Assembly: GCA_964568925.1 (NCBI GenBank) | Contig: CAZMSJ010000002.1 | Span: 12,339 to 76,338 of the forward strand | Direction of reading: 5' to 3' | Length of the DNA: 64,000 nt | Source of the DNA: an uncultured Gammaproteobacteria bacterium | GTDB lineage: Bacteria; Patescibacteriota; Microgenomatia; UBA8517 | In this document: positions 1,904-61,264 of the stretch, piece by piece | How the letters are laid out: every line of letters begins with the position of its first letter | How positions within the stretch are numbered: the first letter of the stretch is position 1 | Notes under the pieces: model-generated | The model's database searches: none | The model's input: only the letters and a program-made list of their open reading frames with translations | What the model was told of the DNA's origin: nothing | Translations under genes and position numbers: made by a program

Positions 1904-2665
1904 ATGGCTAAAGAGGCACAACCGTATCTGTCTGTCGTTATTCCTGCATATAAGGAAATTGATAATCTGAAACTTGGTGTTCTAGAAATGGTTCGTGACT
2001 ATCTTCAAAAGCAGACATACAGCTGGGAAGTATTAATTGTTGATGATGGATCTCCTGATAAAACTGCTGACGTAATTGAAAAGAAAATTGCTCATTGGAA
2101 AGGTTTTTCTCTCTCTCGTGAACCACATCGTGGTAAAGGGGGAACGGTTATTGCCGGTGTTCTTTCAGCTCATGGAAAAATTGTTTTGTTTACCGATATG
2201 GATCAGGCAACTCCGTTAAACCAAATAGAAAAGTTTTTCCCTTATTTTGAAAAAGGAGCTGCTCTTGTGATTGGTTCACGACAGGGGAGGAAGGGTGCTC
2301 CATTAACCAGAAAAGTTATGGCGTATGGTTTCCAGATGTTAAGAACACTCATTTTAAGACTTCCATATAAAGATACTCAGTGTGGGTTTAAAGCTGTTAC
2401 TCACGAAGCTGCTCAAAAAGTATTCCACCAAATGAAAATATTTGGATCTGGGACATCAGTCAACGCTGGTGTAACTGCAGGCTTTGATCTTGAAATGCTG
2501 TACTTAGCAAGGAAGATGAGGCTCAAGACAATTGAAGTTCCTGTTGAGTGGGAACACAAAGGAACAGCTCGTGTTAGTGCCATTCGTGATTCATATCAAG
2601 GGCTTCGTGATATGGTAAAGGTACGTATTAATGCCCTTTCTGGAAAATACAAAATCACAAAATGA
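1904..2665 (+). CDS. GT2 (GT-A) glycosyltransferase, soluble DPM1/ALG5-like candidate polyprenol-phosphate hexosyltransferase
   Basis: Motifs LSVVIPAYKE, VLIVDDGSPDKT, FTDMDQATP, TQCGFK. 253 aa with no TM segment. Confidence 0.7.
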   Translation: MAKEAQPYLSVVIPAYKEIDNLKLGVLEMVRDYLQKQTYSWEVLIVDDGSPDKTADVIEKKIAHWKGFSLSREPHRGKGGTVIAGVLSAHGKIVLFTDMDQATPLNQIEKFFPYFEKGAALVIGSRQGRKGAPLTRKVMAYGFQMLRTLILRLPYKDTQCGFKAVTHEAAQKVFHQMKIFGSGTSVNAGVTAGFDLEMLYLARKMRLKTIEVPVEWEHKGTARVSAIRDSYQGLRDMVKVRINALSGKYKITK

Positions 2666-4236
2666 AAAAGATCTTAAGTTCGTTTTTCAAGGATACACGC
2701 CTGGTTATCGCTCTTTGTACCTCCGCTGTTATTCTCATCGCTTCAACTGTCGTCCGTCTCTTTCACCTAACAATTCTTCCTGTATTTGCTGATGAGGCAA
2801 TTTATGTTAGATGGGCTCAAGTGATGAAAGCAGAGCCGACACTTCGATATCTTCCCTTGTCAGATGGTAAAGAGCCGTTGTACATGTGGATCCTAATGCC
2901 AGTATTTAAGATATTTTCTAATCCACTCTTTGCTGGTCGCTTTGTATCTGTTGCAGCTGGGATGGGAACTTCACTCGGTGTTATGGCCCTTGCCTATGTG
3001 TTGTTTCGTTCAAAGAAAGTAGCAGTATTGTCTCTTTTTCTCTATCTTGTTAGTCCCTTCACCTTCTTCTTTCATCGAATGGCACTGGTTGACTCGTTGT
3101 TATCTTTATTTGGAGTGTGGGTTGCCGTCTTTTCAGTACTGACTGTTAAAAATATTCAAAGAGGTGGGAGATCCTTTGATTTTCCACTCGCCACAGGTTT
3201 TTCATTAGGCTTTGCCTGGCTAACCAAGTCCCCAGCCTTATTCTTTGCACTTCTGTCTTCAGGTTCAGTTATCTTTATTCGAAAGCCATCAATAAAGGTT
3301 ATTGTTCTTTCACTCTTTGCTATTTTGTTTTCAATTGGAATTGGGTATGGAATGTACAACACGTTGCGTCTCGGTCCTAATTTTCAAATGATTGCGAGTC
3401 GCAATTTAGATTATGTATTCCCGGTAAGTCACATTATTGAAAACCCTCGTGATCCATTTATCTTTCATGTCGACCGCGCACTCGAGTGGTTCTTTATTTT
3501 GGGGCCATTTACAATACTTATCCTCGCAGCATTGGGTAGCATTGATTTAGTTAAAAAATATTCCCGAGAAGTTCTCTTTTTGCTCGCTTGGTTTGCGATA
3601 CCACTTCTTGTCGAGGCAGAATTTGCTAAGGTGTTTACCGCTCGATATGTGTTTTTCACCATTCCACCACTTGCCGTCTTAGCAGGCGCAATTGCGTTAA
3701 GTCAATCAAAGCTAATTCGAAGAGTTTCAGGGGTTATTATTTTTGCAGGTGTTGTTTTGTCTCTCCAAAACATCTTCTTGTTAATCACTAATCCAGCTCG
3801 TGCATACCTTCCAAATGGTGAACGCTCAGGGTACCTTGTTGAATGGACAGCTGGAACTGGGATATATGAGTCATCTCTTTTTGTTCGGCAAGAGCTGAAG
3901 GCTCACCCTGATCAGCATATCGTAATTGGGACTGAAGGGTATTTCGGTACGCTTCCAGATGGTTTGCAGATCTATTTAGAGAGAGTTCCCAATGTAACCA
4001 TTTTTGGAACTGGACTCAATTTCTCTGATGTACCCCAAAGTTTGAAGGATGCAAAAAAAGAAGGGAAACGAGTCTTTTTCGCAGTGAATGCATCACGGCT
4101 CAATTTGAAGAAATCTCCAGAGGAATATGGTTTGAAGACTGTCCTTTCCTTCCCGAAGGAATTGAGAGACCGAGATACTCGTGAATATGTTCAACTAGGA
4201 GACCGTGATACCTACTATTTCTTTGAACTTCAGTAG
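2662..4236 (+). CDS. GT-C-fold membrane glycosyltransferase, ArnT/PMT_2-like
   Basis: 524 aa. TM1 is followed by LPVFADEAIYVRWAQ (acidic DE loop), then at least 10 hydrophobic segments and a C-terminal soluble domain. ATGA overlap with the upstream GT2. Confidence 0.7.
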   Translation: MKKILSSFFKDTRLVIALCTSAVILIASTVVRLFHLTILPVFADEAIYVRWAQVMKAEPTLRYLPLSDGKEPLYMWILMPVFKIFSNPLFAGRFVSVAAGMGTSLGVMALAYVLFRSKKVAVLSLFLYLVSPFTFFFHRMALVDSLLSLFGVWVAVFSVLTVKNIQRGGRSFDFPLATGFSLGFAWLTKSPALFFALLSSGSVIFIRKPSIKVIVLSLFAILFSIGIGYGMYNTLRLGPNFQMIASRNLDYVFPVSHIIENPRDPFIFHVDRALEWFFILGPFTILILAALGSIDLVKKYSREVLFLLAWFAIPLLVEAEFAKVFTARYVFFTIPPLAVLAGAIALSQSKLIRRVSGVIIFAGVVLSLQNIFLLITNPARAYLPNGERSGYLVEWTAGTGIYESSLFVRQELKAHPDQHIVIGTEGYFGTLPDGLQIYLERVPNVTIFGTGLNFSDVPQSLKDAKKEGKRVFFAVNASRLNLKKSPEEYGLKTVLSFPKELRDRDTREYVQLGDRDTYYFFELQ

Positions 4237-4266: not shown

Positions 4267-6024
4267 ATGTCATTTTTTTGGAATAAATCACTTACAAAGG
4301 TCGTTAAAAGTCATGATTTCATAGCTCTTGTCATTGTCCTTTTTGCGGCATGGCTTGCTTCTCGTTCTCTTTTTGCTGGTGGTTATTTTAATATGCATGA
4401 CGATCTTCAGATGATGCGTCAGCTGTCGATGGAAAAGTGCTTCCTAGACTTACAAATTCCTTGTAGATGGATACCAGACATGGGGTATGGCTTCGGATAC
4501 CCATTGTTTAATTTTTATCCACCTCTTCCATATCTCGTTGGAGAGATTTTTCGTGTAATTGGATATTCATTTGTTGATACCGCAAAAGCCTTGTTTATCC
4601 TTTCATTCTTTGTGTCTGGCGTAACTATGTATTACTTGGCAAAGAATTTCTTCGGTCGAGCCGGTGGGGTATTGTCAGCAGTCTTTTATATTTGGGCCCC
4701 TTACCACGCAGTTGATGTATTTGTTCGCGGAGCAATGAACGAGTCATGGGGACTTATGTGGTTCCCTGCAATTTTATTGTTCTCATATAAATTACTCAGT
4801 AAACCTGTCTTATCTTTCAAAAAGAAAGATATAATAGATTCACTTCCTAACGTGATTCTTCTTTCTCTTTCATGGGCTGCATTGTTAACCTCACACAATT
4901 TGATGGTAATTATCTTTACTCCATTTTTTGCTTTGTGGTGTGGAGTTTGGCTCGTAAAGAGCAAAAACTGGAAGTCAGTTGTTCCACTTTTGGTCTCTGG
5001 TCTTTGGGCTGTTGGGTTAGCCGCATTTTTCACACTCCCTGTCTTTTTAGAAAAAAACATCGTTCAAACAGATACCTTAATAAAAGGATATTACGAATAT
5101 ACTGCTCATTTCCCAAGTGCCCGTCAGCTTCTGTTCTCTCGTTTTTGGGGTTTTGGTCCATCTGTTTGGCTTGAAAACGATGGGATGCCATTTCAGATTG
5201 GATGGTTCCATTGGATAACTCCACTTATTGTGGCTGCTTTGTTATTTGTTCGAACGCTAAAAACAAAGAAGTTTGATCAGTTGTTTTGGGTCATATCAAT
5301 TGCATTTGTTATTGGAGCAGCAGCTACCTTTATGTCTCACCCTCGTTCCACCCCAATCTGGGCACATATTCAAGCACTTCAATTTATTCAATTCCCATGG
5401 AGATATTTGACGATGGTTATCCTTGGGTTCTCATTCGCAGTTGGTGGTTTGGTGAGACTCGTACCAAAGGCTTTTTCATATCCAATCGCAGTTGTTCTTA
5501 TGGCTGGCGCTATCGCATATAGCTGGGGATATTTTCTTCCTGAACATGGAAAGCTTGGACCACTTACTGATCAAGAAAAGTTTACTGGAGCTGCTTGGGA
5601 ATTACAGCAGACAGCTGGTATTTATGATTATTTGCCAAATACTGCGTGGACCGCCCCACATGGACCACGAAAAGTGCAGGCTGAGATTATGGAAGGAACT
5701 GGTGAAGTTATTACTGGTACTTCAGGTACCAATTGGGAAAAGTTTTCAGTTAAAGCAGAAACAGATGTTACAGTTCGTGTGAGTCTCCTTCAGTTTCCAA
5801 CATGGCATGTCTTGGTTGATGGCGTAGAGACTGAAACGTTTGTACCAAAAACGGAAGAATGGGGAAGACTCTATGTCGTGATACCAAAAGGTGAGCATCA
5901 AGTATCAGTGAAGTTATCTGATACACCTATTCGTACTGCTGGAAACATTATATCAATTGTTTCATGGGTGTTGCTAGGATTGATTCTGTTTTTCCGACGC
6001 AATACACTCATGCATAAGGCATGA
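4267..6024 (+). CDS. Polytopic membrane protein, YfhO/PTPS-related-type GT-C candidate
   Basis: 585 aa with YFNMHDDLQMMRQLSMEKC...IPCRWIPDMGYGFGYPLFNFYPPLPY. Paralogue of the 27989 product. The C-terminus has a beta-rich domain (LLQFPTWHVLVDG) plus a terminal TM, as in YfhO-type proteins. Confidence 0.6.
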   Translation: MSFFWNKSLTKVVKSHDFIALVIVLFAAWLASRSLFAGGYFNMHDDLQMMRQLSMEKCFLDLQIPCRWIPDMGYGFGYPLFNFYPPLPYLVGEIFRVIGYSFVDTAKALFILSFFVSGVTMYYLAKNFFGRAGGVLSAVFYIWAPYHAVDVFVRGAMNESWGLMWFPAILLFSYKLLSKPVLSFKKKDIIDSLPNVILLSLSWAALLTSHNLMVIIFTPFFALWCGVWLVKSKNWKSVVPLLVSGLWAVGLAAFFTLPVFLEKNIVQTDTLIKGYYEYTAHFPSARQLLFSRFWGFGPSVWLENDGMPFQIGWFHWITPLIVAALLFVRTLKTKKFDQLFWVISIAFVIGAAATFMSHPRSTPIWAHIQALQFIQFPWRYLTMVILGFSFAVGGLVRLVPKAFSYPIAVVLMAGAIAYSWGYFLPEHGKLGPLTDQEKFTGAAWELQQTAGIYDYLPNTAWTAPHGPRKVQAEIMEGTGEVITGTSGTNWEKFSVKAETDVTVRVSLLQFPTWHVLVDGVETETFVPKTEEWGRLYVVIPKGEHQVSVKLSDTPIRTAGNIISIVSWVLLGLILFFRRNTLMHKA

Positions 6025-7817
6025 AAAAAATCTTCCAGGGTTTTCATGAAGTTGTAGGTGTTTCAGTGTGGGCTTTTAAGCTCTATTTTTCATTCGCTCC
6101 GTTTTACACATTACTATTTGTTATTACCCAGATACTTCTTTCTTCATCTGCAATTATTACCTCCTATTTACTGGGGGTCGCGGTAGATCAAGTCATAAAA
6201 GGAGCACAAACCTCAACCACGGCAGTTCAATTATCATTGGTGTTTCTTCCTCTTATTGTTTTTCAATCTGTAATGAGTCTTGTTGGAATATTCCAAAACC
6301 ATGCCAATCGAATGCTTGGCATTCTTGAGAATTTTAAATTACGTGAATATCTCTATAAGAGATTAAAAGTTCTTGGAATTACAAAACTTGAAGACCCTGA
6401 TGTTGTTAATTATATGTACCGTTTTAACGAGTCTATTGGTTTTATCGGAAATCACCTTAGCCTTTTAACGAGAACACTCGCATCTGCAATTTCACTTATT
6501 ACAACAGTTGGTGTCATCCTTATTTTTATACCTCAGGTTTTACCATTCGTCATTGTTGCTTCAATCGTTGAATGGTCGATCAATCAACACTTTTTGCGTA
6601 AGATTTGGCAATTCAGTCTTGATAATACCGTAGACCGTAGAAGTGCAATGCAGGACGTCTCTGCACTATCTGATCCGACCCCACTCAAAGAACTACTCAT
6701 TGTTGGTGGTGTTAACTTCTTTGAACGTCGATACGGTCACTTTGTGAATAGGTATGTAAAAAGGTATAAAGCTATTCGAGATCATTGGACGAGTTTGTTG
6801 GCTGGAAATGAGCTTTTACAAATTGCCACATATACTGCCGGAATATTTTTGGTTGTAGAGAAGTTTTTGCTACAAGCAATCTCTATTGGTCGGTTAACTT
6901 TCCTCTTTAGAAGTTTGAACATCTTTGTTGACTCGTTTACAGGGTTTGGTGGCAATTTGGTTGCACTTCGAGAGTCTTCGATTAAGCTTGCTGATTCCCG
7001 AGCATTGTTTGTTAAATTTGATCCCGAAGAAGATGGTTCAATTGAATTGACTCTAAATCGGTCTCCAGAGATAGAGTTTAAAAATGTGAATTTTACATAC
7101 CCAAATGCGAAGCGACAGATATTTAAGAATGTTAGTTTTACCATTAAGAGTGGAGAAAAGATCGCAATAGTAGGAGAAAACGGTGCAGGTAAAACTACTC
7201 TGGTTAAATTACTTTCTCGTTTGTATCGGATTGATTCAGGGGAAATTTTAATTGATGGAGTTAATTTGAATGATATTAAAATTAATAGTTGGTATGAAAA
7301 CTTGGGAGTACTTTTCCAAGATTACAGCAAGTTTGGCCACCTGACGGTTCACGAAAACATAGCACTTGGCCGTGGTGATGTATTGCCTGATTTTGAAAAA
7401 ATCAAACAAGCCGCAACAGATTCTGAGTCAATTGATTTTATTAACATGTACTCGAAGAAATTCAATCAGGTCTTGTCTGAACAATACCCTGGCGGTATTC
7501 GTCCAAGTACTGGGCAATGGCAAAAGATTGCAGTTGCTCGCTTCTTCTATCGTGAAGCACCAGTCCTTGTGCTAGATGAGCCAACAGCTTCAATTGATGC
7601 CGTATCTGAGTCAAAGATTTTTAATAATATTTATAAATTTATGAAAGGCAAGACTGTTGTCATTATTTCGCATCGTTTTTCAACCGTACGGAATGCAGAT
7701 CGAATATTTGTTGTTGATAGGGGTCATATTGTTGAGCAGGGAACTCACGATGAGCTTCTGAAGAAAAAAGGAACCTATGCAAAGGCTTTCAAGCTCCAAG
7801 CTGAAGGGTACGAGTAG
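6021..7817 (+). CDS. Fused TMD-NBD ABC exporter (MsbA/PglK-like half-transporter)
   Basis: N-terminal 6-TM region. Walker A GENGAGKTT, signature STGQWQKIAVAR, Walker B VLVLDEPTASID, H-loop VIISHR. ATGA overlap with the upstream gene. Confidence 0.85.
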   Translation: MKKIFQGFHEVVGVSVWAFKLYFSFAPFYTLLFVITQILLSSSAIITSYLLGVAVDQVIKGAQTSTTAVQLSLVFLPLIVFQSVMSLVGIFQNHANRMLGILENFKLREYLYKRLKVLGITKLEDPDVVNYMYRFNESIGFIGNHLSLLTRTLASAISLITTVGVILIFIPQVLPFVIVASIVEWSINQHFLRKIWQFSLDNTVDRRSAMQDVSALSDPTPLKELLIVGGVNFFERRYGHFVNRYVKRYKAIRDHWTSLLAGNELLQIATYTAGIFLVVEKFLLQAISIGRLTFLFRSLNIFVDSFTGFGGNLVALRESSIKLADSRALFVKFDPEEDGSIELTLNRSPEIEFKNVNFTYPNAKRQIFKNVSFTIKSGEKIAIVGENGAGKTTLVKLLSRLYRIDSGEILIDGVNLNDIKINSWYENLGVLFQDYSKFGHLTVHENIALGRGDVLPDFEKIKQAATDSESIDFINMYSKKFNQVLSEQYPGGIRPSTGQWQKIAVARFFYREAPVLVLDEPTASIDAVSESKIFNNIYKFMKGKTVVIISHRFSTVRNADRIFVVDRGHIVEQGTHDELLKKKGTYAKAFKLQAEGYE

Positions 7818-7839
7818 TGCTGATTGTACTCAAGCTAAA

Positions 7840-7848
7840 TGATACAAT
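7840..7848 (+). promoter_or_regulatory. Extended -10 TGaTACAAT, 6 nt before GTG 7855 (leaderless candidate)
   Basis: Exact TGnTAnAAT match in a 37-nt gap. Confidence 0.45.
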
Positions 7849-7854
7849 TGGTTT

Positions 7855-9369
7855 GTGAAAAGTACTCGTATTAAAGAAACAGTTGAGGTTCGTGATCCTG
7901 GTGAAGTTGAAATTGGGATTGCAGAGGTCAAAGCTAGATCTGTACGTGGAATTGTTGTTTTAACTGGACGAACCTTCTTTTTGCAAATCATTGCCGTTAT
8001 CGCCTCAGGCTTTTTGTGGGCATATCTAGGGCCATCAGAACTTGGGGTATTTTTCATTTTGAATGCTGTCATCAATTTCTTGAACTACTTCTCTGATGTA
8101 GGCTTAGCTGCAGCATTAATTCAAAAGAAAACACATCCAACGGATGTTGATTTAAAAACTACATTCTTCGTTCAGGAACTTCTTGTATTAACACTCATTG
8201 GTATTGTGGTATTACTTACTCCATTTTTTACTCAGAAGTATTCTTTAACTCAAGATGGTGTAGTCCTTTTGTATGCACTTGCCTTATCTTTCTTTTTGTC
8301 ATCTCTCAAAAGTATTCCGTCAATCTTGCTTGAAAGAAAGCTCGATTTTATTAAGCTCACGTTTCCACAAATCTTGGAGCAAGTGTTGTACTTTGTTGTA
8401 CTCGTTTACTTTGCGGTTAATGGATATGGTATTAAAAGTTTTACCATCGCAGTTATCGCTCGTGACATTATTGGACTTGTAAGTATTTATTGGCTACAGC
8501 CATGGATGCCAGGAATTGCATTTTCTCGCTCGACCTTGAAAGATCTCTTCCGGTTTGGGATACCGTTTCAAATTAATACATTGCTCGCGGCATTTAAGGA
8601 CGATGGAATGACGATTGTTCTTGGGGGAATACTTGGGCCCGCCGGGGTTGGTTTCCTTGGGACTGCTCAAAAATTTGCTCGTTATCCGTTAACCTTCTTT
8701 ATGGATACGGTTACTCGTGTAACCTTCCCAGCATTTTCCCGAATGCAAGATTCACCACTTGATCTGGCAAGAAGTGTAACCCGATCAATCTTTTTCATTT
8801 GTTTTCTCGTATTTCCTTCTCTCGTTGGGTTAGCCATTGTTGCACCATATATCGTTGAAGTTATCCCTCGGTACAATCAGTGGAAGCCGGCATTAGTTGC
8901 GCTCACATTTGTTTCTATTAACTTTATGTTTGCTGCAGCAACGACACAATTAACAAATCTACTAAATGCTATTGGCAAGATTCGTATTACATTCTTTTTG
9001 ATGATTATGTGGACGACCCTTACCTGGGTATTTATTCCACTGCTCGCTATGAGGTTTGGAGTAAATGGTGCAGCTCTCGGGTATTCACTTGTTGGTTCAT
9101 CATCGTTAATTGCAATCTATATTGCTAAAAAGCATGTTAATTTTTCTCTGTATCACTCAGTCGGTAAACCACTCATTGGAACGGGGATAATGGCTACCGT
9201 TCTTGTGTTATTACGCATTTTTCTTCCACTCAATAGTTATTCAATTATTATTCTTTCTCTTGTTGGTGCAATTGTGTACGTCGTAGTTATGGTTGCACTC
9301 GTTGGGGCATCACTCGTTGAAGATGCAAAAAAGAGTTTTAAAACGGTTATCGGGAAAAAGATTGCCTAA
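7855..9369 (+). CDS. MOP-superfamily polysaccharide flippase (Wzx-like)
   Basis: 504 aa with about 12-14 TM segments and a layout typical of polysaccharide biosynthesis proteins. GTG start lies 6 nt after TGATACAAT. Confidence 0.65.
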   Translation: MKSTRIKETVEVRDPGEVEIGIAEVKARSVRGIVVLTGRTFFLQIIAVIASGFLWAYLGPSELGVFFILNAVINFLNYFSDVGLAAALIQKKTHPTDVDLKTTFFVQELLVLTLIGIVVLLTPFFTQKYSLTQDGVVLLYALALSFFLSSLKSIPSILLERKLDFIKLTFPQILEQVLYFVVLVYFAVNGYGIKSFTIAVIARDIIGLVSIYWLQPWMPGIAFSRSTLKDLFRFGIPFQINTLLAAFKDDGMTIVLGGILGPAGVGFLGTAQKFARYPLTFFMDTVTRVTFPAFSRMQDSPLDLARSVTRSIFFICFLVFPSLVGLAIVAPYIVEVIPRYNQWKPALVALTFVSINFMFAAATTQLTNLLNAIGKIRITFFLMIMWTTLTWVFIPLLAMRFGVNGAALGYSLVGSSSLIAIYIAKKHVNFSLYHSVGKPLIGTGIMATVLVLLRIFLPLNSYSIIILSLVGAIVYVVVMVALVGASLVEDAKKSFKTVIGKKIA

Positions 9370-11140: not shown

Positions 11141-11160
11141 CCTCCTCCTTGTTTTTTTCG

Positions 11161-11168
11161 TGTACAAT
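11161..11168 (+). promoter_or_regulatory. -10 box TGTACAAT, 6 nt before GTG 11175 (leaderless candidate)
   Basis: Same octamer as at 1891-1898. Confidence 0.4.
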
Positions 11169-11174
11169 AAGGCT

Positions 11175-20186: not shown

Positions 20187-20977
20187 AACGAGTTACTCTC
20201 TCAATTATTATTGTTAGTTATAACACCCAAAAATTAACGGTTGCTTGTATAAAATCTATTATTAAGCACAAGCCTTCATTCCCTTTTGAAATAATCGTTA
20301 TTGATAATGCTTCAACTGATAACTCTGTTTCAGAGATTAAAAAGCTTGGAATAAAAAACCTGCTGTTACTTGAAAATGAAAATAATGAAGGTTTTTCAAA
20401 AGCAAACAACATGGGATTGGAACTTTCCTATGGTGAATATGCGTTACTCCTGAATTCTGATACAGAAATCATTGATTCTAGTCTGACCCAGCTTGTCAAT
20501 TTTGCAAAGCAAACAAAAGATGCTGGAATCGTTGCCCCTCAATTGCTTAACCCTGACAAGACTGTCCAACCATCAATTTATAAACTGCCAACAATTTCTC
20601 GTGCGATCGCACAATATATCTTTAAGAGAAAAGGTATTCTCAATAAATATTCTCTAGAGGGAACAGCTTCATTTGTTGTTGAATCAGTTGTTGGTGCAGC
20701 CTTCCTTATTACGCCTGTTGCTCGTAAGCGAGTAGGAGAGTTGGATGAGAAGTTCTTTATGTATTTTGAAGACTTAGATTATTGTAGAAGAGTTAGTAGC
20801 ATGGGACTTAAAGTATATTATCTTCCAGATGTTCACTTGATTCATGTTCATGGAGCCAGTGGCAAGGGTGGTGTGAATACGTTGCTCATAGAGTCAAGTA
20901 AAAAATATTTTGGAATTGTGAGATACTATTTATACACATTCGTTTTGTGGTTTGGACAAAAATATGGCACCAACTAA
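20183..20977 (+). CDS. GT2 glycosyltransferase
   Basis: Motifs LSIIIVSYN, IIVIDNASTDNS, NEGFSKANN, LLNSDT, FEDLDYCRR. ATGA overlap. Confidence 0.8.
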   Translation: MKRVTLSIIIVSYNTQKLTVACIKSIIKHKPSFPFEIIVIDNASTDNSVSEIKKLGIKNLLLLENENNEGFSKANNMGLELSYGEYALLLNSDTEIIDSSLTQLVNFAKQTKDAGIVAPQLLNPDKTVQPSIYKLPTISRAIAQYIFKRKGILNKYSLEGTASFVVESVVGAAFLITPVARKRVGELDEKFFMYFEDLDYCRRVSSMGLKVYYLPDVHLIHVHGASGKGGVNTLLIESSKKYFGIVRYYLYTFVLWFGQKYGTN

Positions 20978-26325: not shown

Positions 26326-26369
26326 TCGTTGATCAATTGTTGTAAGTAACTTTTTCACCTAAAAGACGC

Positions 26370-26375
26370 TATACT
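26370..26375 (+). promoter_or_regulatory. -10 box TATACT, 6 nt before ATG 26382
   Basis: It lies in a 56-nt gap with no SD. Confidence 0.35.
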
Positions 26376-26381
26376 ATCTTC

Positions 26382-35845: not shown

Positions 35846-35871
35846 CCTGACCAGATATAGCAAAAAACTTG

Positions 35872-35877: not shown

Positions 35878-35884
35878 ATTGGTA

Positions 35885-49224: not shown

Positions 49225-50159
49225 AGGTATTTGTTTTTAATAATGTTCTCAATACTGTCTCTCTTTTGGTTGTAGCTTGCTATCATTTCCCCCATAAGCC
49301 CCGTAACGATAAGTTGTACTCCAATGATCATAAGCAGCATACCTAAAATAAGTAATGGTTGGTGAAATTGTATTCCTCCAGTCGTGATACGAAGATAGGT
49401 AATGTAGAGCCCAATTGCAAATCCACCAGAAAAAGATAATAACCCGAAACCGCCAAAAAAGTGACCTGGTCTGCGAATGTATCCAGTTAAAAACACCACC
49501 GTTAAGAGGTCCAAGAATCCCTTTATATTTCTTTCAATTCCGAATTTAGATTTTCCAAACTTTCTTGGATTATGTTTAACAACAATTTCGCCAACCTTGA
49601 AGTTTTGTTTTGCAGCCAGCACCGGGATATAGCGATATTGTTCACCATAGAGGTTAAGTGATTCAACGACTTCACGACGATATGCCTTATATCCACAGTT
49701 TGTATCGTGAACAGAAACTCCAGTTACTTTTCGAATAATAAAGTTTAGGATTCTAGATGGAATAACTTTGGATACTGGATCATGTCGCACCTTTTTCCAT
49801 CCTGATACTAAATCGTAACCTTCTGCGATTTTTTTAAGAAAACGTGGAATTTCATCAGGTTCATCTTGAAGATCAGCATCAAGAGTGAAAATAATTTCTC
49901 CCTTGGTATGCATAAATCCAGTTTCAAGTGCCATAGACTTTCCCCAATTTCCCCGGAGAGCGATTACTTTAATCTGTTTGTTTTTCTTGCGTAAATCAGT
50001 GAGTTTTTGGAGCGTTTTGTCTGTCGACCCGTCGTCGACAAATATAATTTCGTATTTTCGTTTCAATTTAAGGCAGACAGATTCAATCTTCTTAGCCAAA
50101 ATGGCAACAGATTCTTCCTCGTTCTTAGCTGGTATTACAAAACTTAATATATCTTTCAT
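49221..50159 (-). CDS. GtrB/ArnC/CsbB-like polyprenol-phosphate glycosyltransferase (GT2 with two C-terminal TMs)
   Basis: Motifs LSFVIPAKNEEES, IIFVDDGSTDKT, TLDADLQDEPDEIP, and C-terminal TMs GGFGLLSFSGGFAIGLYITYL and LLILGMLLMIIGVQLIVTGL. SD AAGAGGA lies 7 nt upstream of the ATG. Confidence 0.8.
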   Translation of the reverse strand: MKDILSFVIPAKNEEESVAILAKKIESVCLKLKRKYEIIFVDDGSTDKTLQKLTDLRKKNKQIKVIALRGNWGKSMALETGFMHTKGEIIFTLDADLQDEPDEIPRFLKKIAEGYDLVSGWKKVRHDPVSKVIPSRILNFIIRKVTGVSVHDTNCGYKAYRREVVESLNLYGEQYRYIPVLAAKQNFKVGEIVVKHNPRKFGKSKFGIERNIKGFLDLLTVVFLTGYIRRPGHFFGGFGLLSFSGGFAIGLYITYLRITTGGIQFHQPLLILGMLLMIIGVQLIVTGLMGEMIASYNQKRDSIENIIKNKYL

Positions 50160-54371: not shown

Positions 54372-55070
54372 TTATCTTAATTGCCACCACAGTTTAAATG
54401 CGTTGGAAAATGTAGCAAACACTACGTTCCACTTTGCGTTTTTCACTTCACCAGAAATTCTTGGATGATAATAACTTGGTGCTTCTACAATTCGTAGACC
54501 TTTCTTTCGGAATTTAACAAGAATCTCAGTCAGGATAAATATGCCACCCAACGCTTCAAGTCTCACTCTTTTAACAGCATTTGTTCTCCATATATTTACC
54601 CAGCCAACATCCATGTATTTAACATCAAACAACATAAGAAGAAGCAACAGATATCCATATGAGAAGAATATTCGTTTTGTTGCATAATCGGTTCTTCCTC
54701 CTCGATACCCGAGTATCAAGTCAGCTTCATCAAGAACCTCAAAACAGTGGCGCATATCATCTACCAGAAATTGACCATCAGCTGGCATGTATGCAACAAA
54801 TTCCTTTGTAGATTTTTTAATTCCAGCAAGCATTGCTCTACTAAATCCAACATTTTTATCCATCTGAACAACTGTGACTTCTTTGCATTTCTCAGCGACT
54901 TGCTTTGCAATTTTGGCTGTTTTGTCATGACTTCCATCATCAACTAGGATTATTTCCCAGTCTTTAAAATACTTTGGAAGTTTTTTGATTGAATCCCTAA
55001 GCACAAGTCGAACGTTTTCTTCTTCGTTGTATGCAGGAATTACAATTGAAATTGAGTGTCCTTTCTTCAT
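54372..55070 (-). CDS. GT2 glycosyltransferase, DPM1-like candidate polyprenol-phosphate sugar synthase
   Basis: Motifs ISIVIPAYNEEEN, IILVDDGSHDKT, YMPADGQF. ATG 55070 (MKKGHSISIV) is preferred over the ORF-track TTG 55091 because TGaTATAGT sits 7 nt upstream of it. Confidence 0.7.
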   Translation of the reverse strand: MKKGHSISIVIPAYNEEENVRLVLRDSIKKLPKYFKDWEIILVDDGSHDKTAKIAKQVAEKCKEVTVVQMDKNVGFSRAMLAGIKKSTKEFVAYMPADGQFLVDDMRHCFEVLDEADLILGYRGGRTDYATKRIFFSYGYLLLLLMLFDVKYMDVGWVNIWRTNAVKRVRLEALGGIFILTEILVKFRKKGLRIVEAPSYYHPRISGEVKNAKWNVVFATFSNAFKLWWQLR

Positions 55071-55077
55071 AAGCCAC

Positions 55078-55086
55078 ACTATATCA
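55078..55086 (-). promoter_or_regulatory. Extended -10 TGaTATAGT (minus strand), 7 nt before ATG 55070
   Basis: The minus strand reads CTGATATAGTGTGGCTT-ATG. Confidence 0.4.
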
Positions 55087-55116
55087 GTCAATTGCCATTT
55101 ATTCTATAAATAAATT

Positions 55117-55131: not shown

Positions 55132-55779
55132 GTGAAGCAAAACGCAAAAAACAAAGTCATTAGTCTCTATCAGAAGGGTAGTTATACTCGTCTCTTCTCA
55201 TATATACGTTTTTGGGATGCACCCTACTCACAAGTAGAAAAGCTTATTCCAAAAAAAGGCACAATAGTTGAACTAGGTTGCGGTGAAGGGCTCTTCAGCA
55301 ACTTCCTTGCTGTTTCAGAACCAAAAAGAAAAGTTATTGGTATTGAGATTGATAAAAATCGTTTTAAAAATGCAGATAAGGGTTTACCAAATGCCACTTT
55401 CTCATATGGTGACATAACAAAGGTTACGATTCCAAAAGCTGATACTGTAGTGCTTTTCCATGTATTGCATCACCTTCGTTCATATACAGCACAATCCACA
55501 CTCTTAAGACGTGTTTCTTTAGGTATCCCTAAAAACGGGCGATTGATTGTGGTTGAGGTTGAACCAGTATTTTCATTCAAATATTTTGTAACTTGGTTTA
55601 CTGATCATTTCTTAGTACCTTGGCTTTTTGAAAAACGATTCTATTCGCCTATTTATTTTAGAGAGGCACAGGATTGGAAGGAACAATTTACTGAACTTAA
55701 TTTTGATGTAAAGATAAAGCGATATCGAAAAAATATGCCGTTTTCACATATTGTCTATGAATGTATCAAGATTAAGTAA
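55132..55779 (+). CDS. Class I SAM-dependent methyltransferase
   Basis: GTG start. Motifs IVELGCGEGLFS and VVLFHVLHHL. Confidence 0.75.
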   Translation: MKQNAKNKVISLYQKGSYTRLFSYIRFWDAPYSQVEKLIPKKGTIVELGCGEGLFSNFLAVSEPKRKVIGIEIDKNRFKNADKGLPNATFSYGDITKVTIPKADTVVLFHVLHHLRSYTAQSTLLRRVSLGIPKNGRLIVVEVEPVFSFKYFVTWFTDHFLVPWLFEKRFYSPIYFREAQDWKEQFTELNFDVKIKRYRKNMPFSHIVYECIKIK

Positions 55780-57949
55780 AAGTAGATTTGGAATTATCAT
55801 TCTTGTAGTGCTTTTTTTCGGTGGACTTTTCAGATTTCTTGGAGTTAACCCTGGCTTTAATCAGTTTCATTCTGATGAGGGGATATCATACTCAGCAGCC
55901 GTTTCAATGCTTCGAAACAGTAATTTTGATCCGCTTCGATACGACTATCCAGCTCTTGTTCCAGAAGTGAATTGGCTTACTTTCCGCTTTATTTTTACGC
56001 CACTATATTGGACAAAGTATTACATTACAAATATTAATCAAATGATTGATGGCTATTTGCCATACATTCCCAAAGAAGTGGATATGAATCGTATTTTTCA
56101 AAACGATATTTTGGGGAACAGAGAGATTAATGCACTTTTTTGGGGAAGATATACTACAGCATTTGTCAGTACTGCTTCAATTTTTGCTCTGTATTTACTC
56201 GCACTACGTTTGTTTAATCGGAAGGTTGCAATACTTTCTGCTATTTTTCTCGCATTTCATTTTAGATCAGTTACAAATTCACACTTGGGGTTACCTGACA
56301 CGTATAACGCATTTTTCTTGTTATTTTCACTGATTGCATCTTGGAGTATTCAAAAATATCCAACAAAGGGATCATATATATTAGCTGGTGTTGCTGTGGG
56401 ATTGAGTTTAGCAACAAAGTATCAGGTCTTTGCAATTTTACCTTTTATCTTTTCTCACATACTTCGATATTGGAATCCACAGAAACCTCGTTCTTTTTTC
56501 TCCATCTTTAAGGACTTTAAGATAGTAATTGCTGGTTTATCAGCGGTATTTGTTTTTATTATCCTAAACCCGTACCTAATTATTAACTTTGATTTCGCAA
56601 CCTATTCAATTCACGAAGTGTCTTTAAAGTATGCAATGGGAAAGAGTGTAATTTCACTATTTCCTCTCCACTATTGGATTTTTAATGATTTTGGGTTAGT
56701 GCTTGTTGGTGTAATTTTTGCAGGTATTCTTTTTTCTCTGTATCTAAGATCTTCACAAGCTCTTTTTCTTTTATGTCATGTAATTCCATTCCTTTTCGTC
56801 ATGTTGTATTACTCAAATGGAGGTTTTTATGTGAGAAATTTTATTACGGTTTCACCGCTATTTTTACTGTTTGCGGCTTGGCTTGTTGTAGAAATATATA
56901 CATTCCTTCGAAGATTTAATCTTTTATTTGCAAGTTTTGCGACAGCGGCTCTCATTTCTCTTCTGGTTTATATGCCTATCACAAACATTTTGATACATAC
57001 TCGTGAATACCAAAAACCTTGGAACTATAAAACAATTGTTGAGGATGTCCGTTCCGTTTTACCTAAAAATGCTGTGGTTGTAGGGCATCCTTTTGATCCT
57101 CTTCCTTCTGAACTAGAACCGAAACGCATTTCAATAAGTACTGCAAATCTTTATTCTTTGCAGGAATTTCGTAAGGTGAAGGCAGATTTTGCTCTTATAA
57201 ATATGGATTGGGCAGCCGATCCATTTTATGGATGGATGACTTCAGCTGGTAGGGAATCTTTGTCTTATGTGTTGCACAAGCCATATGACCAAATGAGAGA
57301 GACGTATTGGGGCCTTTCAATTGAGGAAATGATGCATTATGCGGTTACTGGTCGGTATAAGCCATGGCAAGCTCCAGAAGCAAACTTGTTTTTAATAGCT
57401 GTTCCACAATTTACCTCATATACATTTAGTTCCCCAGATCAAGTAACACTCGACACGAAGTGGAGGAAGATGAACCAATCTGATGCTCCTAATACTTTTT
57501 TGCTGTTACGAGAGAACAACACATTAGCACTAGGCCCAGGTTCAGGAAAGTTTGGCATTGCACGCTTTGTCTCTCCAGAAATGCCCGTGGAACCAGGAGT
57601 TGTGTATCGGTTGAGTGCACAACTTGAGTCTGAAAAAGATTTTGCAAACGCGACACCAAACGTTTTTATACGTGTTGATTTTTACAATAAAGAACAAGGA
57701 AAAATCCTCACTTCTGTATCAGATAGATTTGTTGGTAAAAAAGGTAGTATTGAGGTTCTTACTCAGGTACCACCTAATGCCCAATATTTAACGATTTCAT
57801 ATCAGGCTACAAACGCGCTTGCAGGGTCTGTAATGTTGTCTTCAGTTTCAATGGCAAAGGCGAAAGCAAAGGAACCATTCCCACAACAATTTGTATCATT
57901 TTCTGATTATCAAGATCTTTTGTATCCAAACTCTCATGGGAATTTATAA
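55751..57949 (+). CDS. GT-C-fold membrane glycosyltransferase (PMT_2-like) with a C-terminal CBM_4_9-like jelly-roll domain
   Basis: 732 aa. Loop FNQFHSDEGISYSAAVSMLRN after TM1, and about 12 TMs. The C-terminal ~145 aa (PGVVYRLSAQLESE...FIRVDFYNKEQ...YLTISYQATN..GSVMLSSVSM) resembles carbohydrate-binding modules. Confidence 0.6.
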   Translation: MSMNVSRLSKSRFGIIILVVLFFGGLFRFLGVNPGFNQFHSDEGISYSAAVSMLRNSNFDPLRYDYPALVPEVNWLTFRFIFTPLYWTKYYITNINQMIDGYLPYIPKEVDMNRIFQNDILGNREINALFWGRYTTAFVSTASIFALYLLALRLFNRKVAILSAIFLAFHFRSVTNSHLGLPDTYNAFFLLFSLIASWSIQKYPTKGSYILAGVAVGLSLATKYQVFAILPFIFSHILRYWNPQKPRSFFSIFKDFKIVIAGLSAVFVFIILNPYLIINFDFATYSIHEVSLKYAMGKSVISLFPLHYWIFNDFGLVLVGVIFAGILFSLYLRSSQALFLLCHVIPFLFVMLYYSNGGFYVRNFITVSPLFLLFAAWLVVEIYTFLRRFNLLFASFATAALISLLVYMPITNILIHTREYQKPWNYKTIVEDVRSVLPKNAVVVGHPFDPLPSELEPKRISISTANLYSLQEFRKVKADFALINMDWAADPFYGWMTSAGRESLSYVLHKPYDQMRETYWGLSIEEMMHYAVTGRYKPWQAPEANLFLIAVPQFTSYTFSSPDQVTLDTKWRKMNQSDAPNTFLLLRENNTLALGPGSGKFGIARFVSPEMPVEPGVVYRLSAQLESEKDFANATPNVFIRVDFYNKEQGKILTSVSDRFVGKKGSIEVLTQVPPNAQYLTISYQATNALAGSVMLSSVSMAKAKAKEPFPQQFVSFSDYQDLLYPNSHGNL

Positions 57950-60560
57950 AGCTATTTTAAAGTATCTTCACACCTTCCCTGCTTTTCTTTTTCTTGTTGC
58001 ATTAATTTCCTCAGGGCAAATGATGCTTATGTATATATGGAAAGATGACAATGCGATATTTTTTAAATTCACTCATTTAGCTGAACCAGCCGGGTATCTG
58101 GGTCGAGGTCTATTTGGAGAAGGCCCATACAAATTATCAGTGGCACCCTATTGGTTCATTTATAAACTGGTTGGTTACAGTCCTGTTTTCCCATATTACA
58201 TATTGGCTTTTGCTACCTATTTTGCTGCAATCCTCGCAGTCTATTTGTTGTTCACTCTTTTCTTTGAAAAAAAGACTGCAAAAATCAGTGCGTTTCTTTT
58301 TGCGTCAGGTTACATAGCGTCCGAAGGTTTTTATTGGCTTGCAAGCTCTTGGATTTTGAGTGTATCAATTATCCTTACTGTTTTAGCCGTAGCTGCGACC
58401 TATGTGTACACACAAAAGCCTACGAAGTTATATTATCTTTTTTCAGTTGCATCATACCTCCTCGCTTTGTTAGTTACTCCTGTGAGAACTCACTATGTTA
58501 TTGCACTTGTCCTACTCATACATTTTTTGTGGGGTAAGTATGAATTTACATTGAGAGGACTAGGGGGACTTGTTATTCGACTCACACCGTATCTATTTCT
58601 TTTTTATTGGTTTTATATCCTATCAGCTGATTCTCGGACCACCTCATTTGGTGATTTTTTTAGATCACTTCTGCATGGTGATTTGTATGTACTTTATTCC
58701 TCTCTTACAACCACGGGAAGTATGTTTATCACTGATTTACAATGGAATGTCATTTTAAAGTTGAGTCGCCCACTATTTGGAAGGAATATTTTGAGCACTT
58801 TTGTTGTACTTACCTTTACCGCACTAACCTCAGTTCTTTTATATCGAAAGTCAAGTAAACGATTAACCACTGGAATTGCCGTACTCTATATTGTTTCCTC
58901 GTTCATCATTTTTCTCCTTAGCAGAAAAATAATTTTCTCTCCACAAATTAATAGTTTTGCTGGGGCAGTGTTTGTTACATCCTTTGGTGGTATTATCCTT
59001 GCATTTTTTACGTTCCTTTCTCTTGTTGTCTCAAAAGAGAATAGGAAAACAATATTGTTTTTCTTAATGTGGTTTATTACAAGCTTGATTGTGTATACGG
59101 CGTATATCCCAACCAGTAGTTATGCAACGATTGATCGATACCTTGGGCACTCTTTTATTGCTGTAGCAGTTTTATATGGACTGCTCGCTACCTATACCAA
59201 ACGTAGAATTATTACGGTTCTTGTTATCGTATTTGGAGCACTAAACATTTTTGCCTCAATTCAAACCCAACGTACAATTGTTCAAACGAGAAGTATCCTA
59301 GCTCGTTCCTTTTACACCCAGTTAGCAGAACAACTACCAATCCTTACCAAAGGTGACACATTGTATTTTGACTTGAGTCCAAAAGGGCGTGAAGTCTTTG
59401 CTGCAGCTTTCTCTGTGGGTCAAATGCCAGAGTCTACTGCTCTTGCGTGGAGGTATGGTTTAGACCGGTATGATTTTAATCTTGTGACTGACTATTCGGA
59501 CTTAGTAAAGAAAGTAGAAAGCAAAAAAGTTGATCAGCAAAAGATTCATACATTTTACTTTGACGGAATTAAATTGCTTGATACAACAAACGAGTATCAG
59601 AGAAAAAACAAAGACACTAAAATAGATTTTACCCTTGGTGGTCGATTGCTCGATGAATATACATTTATGCAACCCACATCTTCAGTACGTGAAGTTCACT
59701 TTGAAATTGTAATGACAGCTTTCCCAAAACGGTTATTGATAACAGATTTTCCAGTTATGACCAGTACTATCGATCCGATTGTTAAGGATGCTTCTTTTCA
59801 AGCTGTTGCAAAAAAGTATCTCGCATTTCGAGCAGCTAGTGTAAAAACCCTCGAGGCAACATCCTCAAGTCAGTGGCAAGAAAGAGTAATCGCAAATATA
59901 CACGATAATAATGAAAATACCGTTTGGCAGCCTGATCGTATATTGTGGCACGATGGTTTACAAAGTTTTACGCTTGATACTGGTGCAGTACAAAACATTG
60001 ATCGATTGGTTTGGAAGAATGGCTTTGATAACAATACTCCGACAGACTATATAATCTTTGTTTCAAAAGACAATCAAAATTTTGAAGAAGTATTGCATAT
60101 TGAAAAGACAAGAAAACTACTTGGAGGACAGCTACAAGAAGAACGTTTCACACCTAAGAGCGCCAGATTTGTACGAATGCAGATAGTAAAAAGCTTGAAT
60201 GATGATGCACCTGGTATTAGTGAGGCTTGGGTTATACCAAGTGAGTTTGCTAATTATTCTGCAAACGATCTTGAGGCTTACTACAAACATCCATTTGCTT
60301 ATATCCCTGACTTAAAATCGTATATCCAAAGCTTACAAACTTTAAATTACAAAGGTATCTTGAATTTTTACTGGTTTAACAACAAGAATATGACGTTCCA
60401 AACAAGCGAGACAAGCAATTTTGAGGTAGTTTACGATGGCAAGCCACACAGCTACAAATTTACTGTCCCAGCAGGAGGTACAGAATTACTAAAACTTCGG
60501 TTAGAAAGTACAACCATACCTGGCGAGGTTCAAATAACACAAATAAAACGAACACAATGA
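57936..60560 (+). CDS. Large polytopic membrane protein (GT-C candidate) with a C-terminal F5/8-type-C (discoidin) domain
   Basis: ATG 57936 is preferred over the ORF-track 57891. After TM1 the loop is YIWKDDNAIFFKF, followed by about 12 TMs. The discoidin-like segment is EATSSSQWQERVIANIHDNNENTVWQ...FTLDTGAVQNIDRLVW...YIIFVSKDNQNFEEV...ARFVRMQIV...ISEAWV. Confidence 0.6.
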   Translation: MGIYKAILKYLHTFPAFLFLVALISSGQMMLMYIWKDDNAIFFKFTHLAEPAGYLGRGLFGEGPYKLSVAPYWFIYKLVGYSPVFPYYILAFATYFAAILAVYLLFTLFFEKKTAKISAFLFASGYIASEGFYWLASSWILSVSIILTVLAVAATYVYTQKPTKLYYLFSVASYLLALLVTPVRTHYVIALVLLIHFLWGKYEFTLRGLGGLVIRLTPYLFLFYWFYILSADSRTTSFGDFFRSLLHGDLYVLYSSLTTTGSMFITDLQWNVILKLSRPLFGRNILSTFVVLTFTALTSVLLYRKSSKRLTTGIAVLYIVSSFIIFLLSRKIIFSPQINSFAGAVFVTSFGGIILAFFTFLSLVVSKENRKTILFFLMWFITSLIVYTAYIPTSSYATIDRYLGHSFIAVAVLYGLLATYTKRRIITVLVIVFGALNIFASIQTQRTIVQTRSILARSFYTQLAEQLPILTKGDTLYFDLSPKGREVFAAAFSVGQMPESTALAWRYGLDRYDFNLVTDYSDLVKKVESKKVDQQKIHTFYFDGIKLLDTTNEYQRKNKDTKIDFTLGGRLLDEYTFMQPTSSVREVHFEIVMTAFPKRLLITDFPVMTSTIDPIVKDASFQAVAKKYLAFRAASVKTLEATSSSQWQERVIANIHDNNENTVWQPDRILWHDGLQSFTLDTGAVQNIDRLVWKNGFDNNTPTDYIIFVSKDNQNFEEVLHIEKTRKLLGGQLQEERFTPKSARFVRMQIVKSLNDDAPGISEAWVIPSEFANYSANDLEAYYKHPFAYIPDLKSYIQSLQTLNYKGILNFYWFNNKNMTFQTSETSNFEVVYDGKPHSYKFTVPAGGTELLKLRLESTTIPGEVQITQIKRTQ

Positions 60561-61264
60561 AGAAAAAGGTGGTTATCGTTCTCCCTGCATATAACGCTGC
60601 AAAAACTCTTAAAAAAACAGTAGATGATATCCCAGACAAAGGATACAAAATCATTCTTGTTGATGACATGAGCAAGGACAATACTGTGCGCTTAGCACAG
60701 AAAATGGGTTTAGAAGTTTTTAAACATCCCCAAAATCGAGGTTACGGAGCAAACCAAAAGACCTGCTACACAATCGCACTATCAATAGGTGCAGATATCA
60801 TTGTGATGATACACCCAGATTATCAGTATGACGCGACAAAAACTGAAGATATGGTACGCCCTATTCAAAAAGGCGAAGTGGACATAATGCTTGGTTCACG
60901 TATCCGAACTCGTAAAGAAGCACTTGCGGGTGGTATGCCCTTTTACAAATATATAAGCAACAGGTTTTTAACGATTGTCGAAAATATTGTACTTGGACTT
61001 AACCTTTCTGAATATCATACTGGGTATAGAGCATACAGTCGTGAAGCACTTGAAAAAGTCCCTTTCCATAAATTTTCTGATGATTTTGTTTTCGATCAGC
61101 AAATGTTAATCAGTGCAGCAAAATTAGAATTATCTATTGGTGAGATTCCTGTACCTGTTCGCTATTTTTCGGAAGCGTCATCTATTGGTCTTATAAAATC
61201 GATACGTTATGGTACTATGACGATAATCTATTTATTTTTGTCAATATTTACTCGAGATGAATAA
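60557..61264 (+). CDS. GT2 glycosyltransferase, DPM1-like candidate polyprenol-phosphate sugar synthase
   Basis: Motifs VVIVLPAYNAAKTL, IILVDDMSKDNT, MIHPDYQYD, YHTGYRAY. ATGA overlap. Confidence 0.7.
   Translation: MKKKVVIVLPAYNAAKTLKKTVDDIPDKGYKIILVDDMSKDNTVRLAQKMGLEVFKHPQNRGYGANQKTCYTIALSIGADIIVMIHPDYQYDATKTEDMVRPIQKGEVDIMLGSRIRTRKEALAGGMPFYKYISNRFLTIVENIVLGLNLSEYHTGYRAYSREALEKVPFHKFSDDFVFDQQMLISAAKLELSIGEIPVPVRYFSEASSIGLIKSIRYGTMTIIYLFLSIFTRDE

Follow-up and report, generated by a model that had tools for sequence, protein, structure and literature searches.

A glycosylation island of a Microgenomatia bacterium with five candidate polyprenyl-phosphate sugar synthases and a candidate MOP-type flippase

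How does a sugar carried on a polyprenyl monophosphate reach the outer face of the membrane when the locus that would make and use it encodes no flippase of the GtrA type? The protein that moves such lipids across membranes is unsettled in all domains of life. The question is raised here by a 64-kb stretch of contig CAZMSJ010000002.1 (the whole of the DNA analysed, hereafter the window), which is a portion of a large envelope-glycosylation island. Its approximately 50 genes are packed almost without gaps and nearly all of them serve glycan synthesis according to the listing of open reading frames (ORFs) and to Pfam scans, which were run on every ORF of at least 100 aa. We analyse five GT2 glycosyltransferases that are candidate polyprenyl-phosphate glycosyltransferases (PPGTs), i.e., synthases of polyprenyl-phosphate (Pren-P) sugars, together with the GT-C enzymes that would use these sugars and the transporters that might carry them. 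The reading that we favour, with moderate confidence, is that of a PPGT/GT-C island in which GtrA-type translocation plays no part at the locus, the MOP protein 38085 flips the product of the synthase 39334, and no priming phosphoglycosyltransferase (PGT) is needed. Genes are named by their first coordinate in the window, with (-) for the minus strand, and their coordinates are collected in Table 1.

The five candidate synthases

Fifteen GT2 proteins matched by PF00535 and four GT4 proteins are encoded in the window. A first-pass annotation made from the sequence had singled out five of the GT2s as DPM1/ALG5/GtrB-like. All five were found at the positions and on the strands given there, and their motifs were confirmed by alignment: LFTDMDQATP in 1904, FLDAGMDISP in 39334, TLDADLQDEPDE in 49221(-), YMPADGQF in 54372(-), and MIHPDYQYD in 60557. 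Each of the five is matched by PF00535, and the best PDB sequence match of each is DPMS, ArnC, or GtrB. As a control, the ten other GT2s were searched together; none of them retrieved DPMS, GtrB, or ArnC at E≤1e-3, and their matches were GmaR, SunS, chondroitin synthase, and similar proteins. Judged by closest characterised relatives, all five candidates belong with the PPGTs and the ten other GT2s do not, so that 49221(-), 1904, 39334, 54372(-), and 60557 are the only GT2s of DPM1/GtrB/ArnC type in the window. An all-vs-all phmmer comparison gave fellow members as top matches for four of the five; in the list of 60557, the non-member 11160 ranks third, above 54372(-).

The alignment of 49221(-) to the solved ArnC (1.3e-50, residues 5-294/299; GtrB 4e-32) runs through the C-terminal membrane region, where this protein has two transmembrane (TM) helices. 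Its score with the NCBIfam ArnC model, 204.8 bits, falls under the 529-bit equivalog cutoff, and for this reason we classify it as ArnC-like and not as an ArnC equivalog. No TM helix is predicted in the other four, whose best PDB match is in each case DPMS: 1904 at 1.2e-11 (best NCBIfam match PgfS), 39334 at 4.5e-12 (PpgS), 54372(-) at 9.1e-14 over residues 12-234, and 60557 at 2.8e-6 (NCBIfam AglJ 2.5e-25, PpgS 4.1e-21). The NCBIfam matches at or near the top for the synthases comprise models of ArnC, PgfS, PpgS, AglJ, and Dol-P-hexose transferase. A profile of the 39334 family ranked DPMS (2.4e-33), ArnC (1.8e-27), and GtrB (3.8e-26) among PDB sequences, and the AlphaFold2 (AF2) model of 39334 (pLDDT 85) had only ArnC, DPMS, and GtrB among its top 18 PDB fold matches. 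The same three proteins account for all of the top 21 fold matches of the 54372(-) model (pLDDT 81), which could be biased because the alignment behind it is made up of PPGT-like paralogues. Long C-terminal helices were modelled at residues 229-248 of 39334, where the helix is aromatic-rich, and at 221-238 of 54372(-). At E≤1e-5, 5850 proteins were retrieved with 39334. Identity is 67% or higher for every one of the best 120, and where these carry a source name, it is Patescibacteria or Woesebacteria.

The metal-binding DXD motif is canonical in 49221(-) (DADLQ, D-A-D-x-Q being the form found in DPMS and GtrB) and in 1904 (DMDQ), and is variant in the alignments of 39334 (DAGMD), 54372(-) (PADGQ), and 60557 (HPDYQ). 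Throughout the 39334 family, D-A-G-M-D is the consensus in place of DXD. Its Asp occupies the position of Gln93 in DPMS, an indication that the metal ligand may have shifted.

Might some or all of the four soluble GT2s then not be Pren-P-sugar synthases at all, and use another phosphorylated or lipid-linked acceptor, as GpgS-like enzymes (glucosyl-3-phosphoglycerate synthases) do or in the extension of an undecaprenyl-diphosphate (Und-PP)-linked glycan? The missing TM helices and the three non-canonical DXD motifs would fit such a role, as would the GpgS structures that follow close behind the PPGTs in the fold search with 39334 (1e-11 vs 1e-14). For 54372(-), the possible bias of the model and the non-specific top NCBIfam matches, which fall on the N-terminal generic GT2 part (e.g., PgaC, PRK10073), point the same way. 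We nevertheless consider this alternative quite improbable: each of the four has a PPGT as its best solved relative (the alignments extend to residues 172-236), all four sit among GT-C genes, which require such donors, and the ten control GT2s behave differently. The absence of TM helices does not bar membership either, because soluble family members exist. PpgS is one, and its NCBIfam model is 226 positions long. GacI is likewise a cytoplasmic synthase (PMC8035078).

Priming and flipping enzymes

The first-pass annotation had also reported neither a priming PGT nor a GtrA-like protein, and profile search, motif scan, and small-ORF scan of the window all bear this out. No window ORF matched PF00953, PF02397, or PF04138 at E≤0.01, and the unassigned membrane proteins of the window gave no match to these families even at E≤10. 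The PGT signature motifs DGxDGL and PGxTGxWQ were not found in a six-frame scan of the window. DUF2304 (PF10066), the family of the GacJ/Rv3632-like synthase partners, was also without a match in the window, including the C-terminal TM region of 61257, which was tested separately; the positive control, a DUF2304 protein from the related locus L088, scored 5.3e-19. Only one ORF of at most 260 aa with at least two TM segments lies clear of larger genes in the window (22721-23410), and the coding density leaves no room for a hidden small gene with four TM helices, with intergenic gaps of at least 40 bp summing to about 1.2 kb. The same outcome was obtained in relatives. Neither PGT nor GtrA is present in the precomputed Pfam annotation of seven related loci (L086-L092), in eight syntenic loci of 15-21 kb each, or, in 13 loci of the candidate phyla radiation (CPR), in the 10 kb on either side of the ArnC-like gene, which were covered by a scan of TM ORFs and a motif scan.

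Four proteins of the window were considered for these roles and rejected. A possible WecA/MraY-like PGT was 36900, which alone in the window resembles WecA in size and topology; its homologues are PF04188/PF13231 proteins ('Gpi18-like mannosyltransferase') and the PGT motifs are absent. For 22721-23410 as a GtrA-like flippase, there was no Pfam or NCBIfam match, and the sole similarity, a weak one, is to a segment of the GT-C paralogues next to it. The C-terminal TM region of 61257 was considered as a fused DUF2304 after a 23.5-bit match to the L088 protein and did not match PF10066. Finally, WcaJ/EPS_sugtrans models matched the N-terminus of 45700, a possible PGT remnant, only at CoA_binding_3 (positions ~125-270) and not at the catalytic domain. 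These N-terminal 140 residues of 45700 resemble the non-catalytic middle domain of WcaJ/WbaP-type PGTs.

By itself, absence from one 64-kb window is weak evidence and carries little weight, because the genes for PGT and GtrA may lie at other loci and a route from Pren-P-sugar to GT-C does not depend on either. Synthesis of a Pren-P-monosaccharide donor needs no PGT. For a GT4/Wzx part, a PGT encoded elsewhere is ordinary, as with wecA, which lies outside most E. coli O-antigen clusters. The requirement for GtrA assumed in the first-pass annotation holds for the Gtr and CsbB-GtcA-YfhO systems and does not extend to a general rule, because flippases of Wzx type (GacK) and SMR-like flippases have been proposed elsewhere (PMC8035078, PMC11127046). 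More specifically, GtrA-type flippases are common and Wzx-type flippases have also been suggested (reviewed in PMC8035078); an SMR-like protein has been proposed as the flippase in Citrobacter O-antigen modification, and flippase activity has not been directly shown for GtrA-type and related proteins (PMC11127046). GacK has been proposed to flip GlcNAc-P-Und (PMC8035078; bioRxiv 10.1101/180810), a hypothesis drawn from a mutant phenotype (bioRxiv 10.1101/180810). In L. lactis, three GT-A/GT-C pairs are all served by CflA, a single GtrA-type gene with a locus of its own (PMC8035078).

A candidate flippase for one synthase emerges from gene order. We compared the window with the seven related loci L086-L092, i.e., eight loci in total. 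In all eight, the gene immediately upstream of the 39334 orthologue encodes a MOP protein (415-423 aa), and in six a PIG-V-like GT-C gene immediately precedes the MOP gene, so that the full triad is present in six of the eight. Identities of the MOP orthologues are 46-49% (compared in L087 and L088) and those of the 39334 orthologues 67-89% (L086-L088), and the genes downstream of the 39334 orthologue differ among the eight loci. A cytoplasmic PPGT, a Wzx-type MOP, and a GT-C, the set encoded together in Gac-type systems, are found here in the order 36900, 38085, 39334. Among the transporters of the window, 38085 is the best flippase candidate for the 39334 product, and 36900 is likely the acceptor-side transferase of the module. 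It had been suggested that the ABC exporter or the MOP proteins flip the monophosphate-linked sugars; gene order lends this specific support for a MOP with one of the five synthases, and for the ABC exporter nothing specific was found.

According to the reading that we favour, each of the five synthases would charge a polyprenyl phosphate with a monosaccharide at the cytoplasmic face. The lipid-linked sugar would then cross the membrane, at this locus without a GtrA-type protein, and the Pren-P-sugar outside would be the donor for the 15-18 surrounding GT-C enzymes. The product of 39334 would be flipped by the Wzx-like 38085 and, with the PIG-V-like 36900, these two would form a module of the GacI-GacK-GacL type. 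The products of the other four synthases might be flipped by the second MOP 7855, by the ABC exporter 6021, or by a shared flippase that is encoded elsewhere. If the GT4, GT2, and MOP genes also build an Und-PP-oligosaccharide, its primer enzyme would be encoded outside the window.

Three observations were made in the related loci. In L088 (GCA_040961665.1), positions 19154-20195 encode a 226-aa GT2 that is closest to 60557, followed by a DUF2304 protein of the GacJ/Rv3632 type; a small-partner solution is therefore present in the lineage and not in this window. The same locus encodes an EamA transporter (13636-14508), two genes downstream of the MOP-GT2 pair. In L092, the conserved cassette is broken by an AbiEii/DUF6922 pair and an AAA ATPase (DUF4143) at 1719-2763 and 7837-9126.

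Several points weigh against our reading. All functional assignments are drawn from homology and gene order, and a remote GtrA-type gene may exist elsewhere in the genome, the absence covering the window and the related loci. The overlap of the MOP and GT2 genes is no sign of coupling on its own, as 28 of the 43 same-strand gene pairs of the window overlap; because overlap is the norm here, it is the conserved adjacency that counts as evidence. The MOP cassette also holds three GT4s, the PglF-like dehydratase, a deacetylase, and a methyltransferase, and therefore looks like a conventional Wzx-dependent Und-PP-oligosaccharide pathway with the MOP in its usual role. The four soluble synthases are without an identified membrane partner in the window, while L088 has its GT2+DUF2304 pair. 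To these are added the non-canonical DXD motifs of three synthases and the proximity of GpgS to 39334, discussed above.

The chief rival to our reading is that of conventional split pathways, in which 38085 and 7855 flip Und-PP-oligosaccharides assembled by the island GT4s and the non-PPGT GT2s, with a PGT of WecA/WbaP/PglC type and a shared GtrA, SMR, or other small flippase, common to several modules, encoded elsewhere. With the three GT4s, the dehydratase, an epimerase, the deacetylase, and the methyltransferase, the MOP cassette is typical of repeat-unit synthesis; CflA is a precedent for one remote gene serving several pairs, in relatives, small partners or transporters are encoded close to genes of this kind (DUF2304 and EamA in L088), and the island probably runs past the left window edge. 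It is the absence of PGT and GtrA from both sets of related loci that such a split leaves to be explained, along with a MOP-PPGT adjacency that persists through rearrangements altering the other neighbours. We regard split pathways as possible and, on balance, doubtful.

A membrane crossing without any dedicated flippase, in which the synthases or the GT-Cs themselves move the Pren-P-sugar, appears highly improbable to us. The TM domain of the P. furiosus DPMS has been suggested by its authors, from crystallographic data, to flip the enzyme's own product (PMC12992685), and the lack of directly shown activity for GtrA-type proteins (PMC11127046) leaves room for such a route. Here, however, four of the five synthases are without a TM domain, the ArnC-like 49221(-) has two TM helices and not the four-helix GtrA-like domain of a type-III DPMS, and the island encodes three candidate transporters.

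Island content and neighbouring genes

The estimate of roughly 18 GT-C enzymes in the first-pass annotation is a fair one. Thirteen multi-TM proteins of the window match PMT_2, PMT, YfhO, or PTPS_related, and with 4267, a paralogue of 27968 (4e-68, all-vs-all phmmer), and 36900, they make up 15 assigned GT-Cs. Several multi-TM proteins have no Pfam match. For the multi-TM proteins 9293, 25051, and 57891, which complete the count of 18, single-sequence hhalign against a GT-C paralogue profile yielded no GT-C assignment. The membrane part of 57891 has no family match and is GT-C-like by topology only; its C-terminal F5/8 type C domain is a discoidin, carbohydrate-binding domain. The transport genes are two MOP genes (Polysacc_synt_3; 7855 and 38085) and one MsbA-like fused ABC exporter (6021). 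The window further encodes five SAM methyltransferases, a single B12-binding radical SAM enzyme, an epimerase, a dehydratase that is PglF/PseB-like, and a protein with a weak match to polysaccharide deacetylases. The deacetylase 42042(-) (Polysacc_deac_1) was considered as ArnD-like; it has no NCBIfam match, and this role remains speculation. Rfam and tRNA scans of the window were both without matches, and its G+C content varies between 33 and 41%.

GT-C genes accompany the synthase genes. They are found on both sides of 1904, and 47146 is convergent with 49221(-). This pairing is kept, adjacent or within ~1.4 kb, in five Microgenomates loci (L003, L007, L009, L012, and L061), where neighbouring GT2s and methyltransferases also stay with the two genes, and 47146 probably uses the product of 49221(-). 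The six paralogous PMT_2 genes of the array at 20952-34581 (20952, 23367, 26382, 29635, 31271, and 32947; E-values 1e-28 to 1e-90, 22-30% identity to the first paralogue 20952) are interleaved with 22721 (229 aa), 25051 (a 424-aa membrane protein without family), and the PTPS_related/YfhO-like 27968, and the order is the same in the relative L083/L086 at ~52-65% identity. Nine homologues of 22721 were found in 5.8 billion proteins, all with the invariant loop motif S-P-S-L-Y-F-F-x-N-H-P-x-E-R...E-x-E-K-F. With hhalign, 22721 aligned weakly (E=1.2e-4, probability 55%) with the post-core part of the GT-C paralogues beside it, and a 22721-type gene lies between two GT-C genes wherever its context was seen.

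The radical SAM enzyme 52718(-) has as best NCBIfam match a PhpK-family rSAM P-methyltransferase model (1.3e-24, under cutoff), and in L010 an orthologue, 61% identical, is found ~1 kb away from that of 54372(-). The substrate methylated by 52718(-) could be a sugar or a lipid-linked intermediate. The GT2s 11160-12068, 12926-13771, and 34583-35446 are mutually paralogous (E 1e-29 to 1e-41), and they may be protein- or peptide-directed glycosyltransferases because the solved proteins closest to them are GmaR and the peptide S-glycosyltransferase SunS. In every related locus, a 34583-type GT2 comes immediately after the GT-C array. The window has a single long non-coding stretch, 35447-35878 (432 bp), which separates GT2 34583 from GT4 35879; ORFs within it have no family match, and the equivalent junction in L086 is merely ~80 bp.

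At the left window edge, a gene is cut (3-329, +), leaving its C-terminal 108 residues and a stop codon at 327-329; because this partial ORF ends inside the window, the island probably continues leftward. The host is judged to be a Woesebacteria-like member of the Microgenomatia (CPR/Patescibacteria), since the nearest genomic relatives of 49221(-) are metagenome-assembled genomes (MAGs) of Daviesbacteria, Woesebacteria, and Microgenomates at 58-68% identity, and a 36900 homologue at 98% identity carries the label 'Candidatus Woesebacteria bacterium'. Six loci syntenic with this Microgenomates-type island (L003, L004, L008, L010, L011, and L061) come from TPA_asm MAGs titled 'uncultured Gammaproteobacteria bacterium'. 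Their ArnC-like proteins are 58-68% identical, and these organism labels look wrong.

Table 1. Genes and gene arrays of the window discussed in the text
Coordinates	Strand	Assignment	Domain matches and remarks
319..1842	+	PMT_2 GT-C	PF13231 4.4e-9; upstream of GT2 1904
1904..2665	+	soluble DPM1-like PPGT candidate	PF00535 over 1-167/168; DMD motif
2662..4236	+	PMT/PMT_2 GT-C	PF13231 5.8e-10, PF02366 5.5e-7; overlaps stop codon of GT2 1904
6021..7817	+	MsbA/PglK/HepA-like fused ABC exporter	PF00005; MsbA model 1.3e-78, residues 23-594, under cutoff
7855..9369	+	second MOP flippase	PF13440 3.4e-52; NCBIfam 'MOP flippase family', 'O-glycosylation flippase'
20952..34581	+	co-directional array with six paralogous PMT_2 GT-Cs	
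22721..23410	+	conserved 229-aa membrane protein	no Pfam/NCBIfam match
36900..38075	+	PIG-V/Gpi18-like GT-C	391 aa, 11 TM; homologues carry PF04188 or PF13231
38085..39356	+	MOP (Wzx-like) flippase	PF13440/PF01943; overlaps start of 39334
39334..40125	+	soluble DPM1/PpgS-like PPGT candidate	PF00535 over 1-167/168; variant metal motif DAGMD, long C-terminal helix
45700..47115	+	PglF/PseB-like UDP-GlcNAc 4,6-dehydratase	PF02719 1.5e-112, PF13727; without TM helices
47146..49224	+	PMT_2-type GT-C	PF13231 3.6e-12; convergent and overlapping with 49221(-)
49221..50159	-	membrane-anchored ArnC/GtrB-like PPGT candidate	two C-terminal TM helices
52718..54328	-	B12-binding radical SAM enzyme	PF04055, PF02310; immediately downstream of 54372(-)
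54372..55091	-	soluble PPGT-like GT2, most divergent of the five	PAD motif, insertion in D-T-x-x-G region
55751..57949	+	PMT-type GT-C	PF02366 4.7e-11; upstream of 60557
57891..60560	+	889-aa protein with ~12 N-terminal TM and C-terminal F5/8 type C domain	PF00754 8.8e-13, residues 656-768
60557..61264	+	soluble AglJ/PpgS-like PPGT candidate	HPD motif; overlaps end of GT-C-like gene 57891

Significance and comparison with known systems

The idea that a MOP protein may flip monophosphate-linked sugars is an existing hypothesis, already proposed in streptococci. What is new is the conserved MOP-synthase-GT-C unit in a CPR lineage with minimal genomes, and we found no paper on GT-C glycosyltransferases in Patescibacteria. 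This compact and highly conserved three-gene unit offers a test bed for Wzx-type flipping of monophosphate-linked sugars, since few alternative transporters are expected in organisms with genomes of ~1 Mb, a size inferred from the 0.93-0.95 Mb contigs of relatives. A CPR bacterium that spends at least 64 kb on surface glycosylation commits a large share of such a genome to it, which is relevant to how the surface of these episymbionts is assembled and varied. A more far-reaching claim would be that across the Microgenomatia, MOPs are dedicated Pren-P-sugar flippases in a conserved unit of PIG-V-like GT-C, MOP, and soluble PPGT that replaces GtrA, with an envelope glycan built largely outside the membrane by GT-Cs, straight from Pren-P-sugars and without PGT-primed Und-PP from this island; this we hold to be unlikely.

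Among characterised systems, the S. pyogenes GacI-GacJ-GacK-GacL system, a 'type b' multi-component transmembrane glycosylation system (Rismondo, Gillis and Gründling 2021, PMC8035078), resembles the module in its TM-less cytoplasmic GT-A (39334), adjoining Wzx-type MOP (38085), GT-C (36900), and presumed Und-P-sugar donor. Unlike Gac, the window has no small membrane partner of the DUF2304/GacJ type, its GT-C is of a PIG-V/Gpi18-like kind and belongs to a CPR bacterium, and the module is one part of a far larger island that encodes four additional synthases and ~17 additional GT-C-like proteins.

Two further comparisons concern individual synthases. In the Arn system (ArnC, ArnD, ArnE/F, ArnT), ArnT is a PMT_2/GT83-type enzyme, and the window likewise pairs 49221(-), most similar to ArnC, with the PMT_2-family GT-C 47146. 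It differs in the sub-cutoff ArnC score, in having no ArnE/F-like SMR pair, and in a deacetylase, 42042(-), without ArnD-specific match. Soluble DPM1-like synthases are the norm in the mycobacterial PpgS/Ppm1 family, and PpgS is the best NCBIfam match of 39334 and the second best of 60557. In the mycobacterial PpgS-Rv3632-Rv3779 and Ppm1/PMT systems, as predicted here, many GT-Cs draw on polyprenyl-P-sugar donors. There, Rv3632 (DUF2304) stimulates PpgS, whereas the window has no such partner, and lineage and envelope type differ.

Finally, the Gtr (GtrA-GtrB-GtrC) and CsbB-GtcA-YfhO systems are set apart by their GtrA/GtcA gene, since PF04138 is absent from the window and from the related loci compared here. 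They share with it GT-C partners, among them the YfhO-like 14759, 27968, and 4267, and a synthase, 49221(-), that is GtrB/CsbB-like and has two TM helices at its C-terminus. The proposed logic is also the same, from cytoplasmic charging through flipping to extracytoplasmic transfer.

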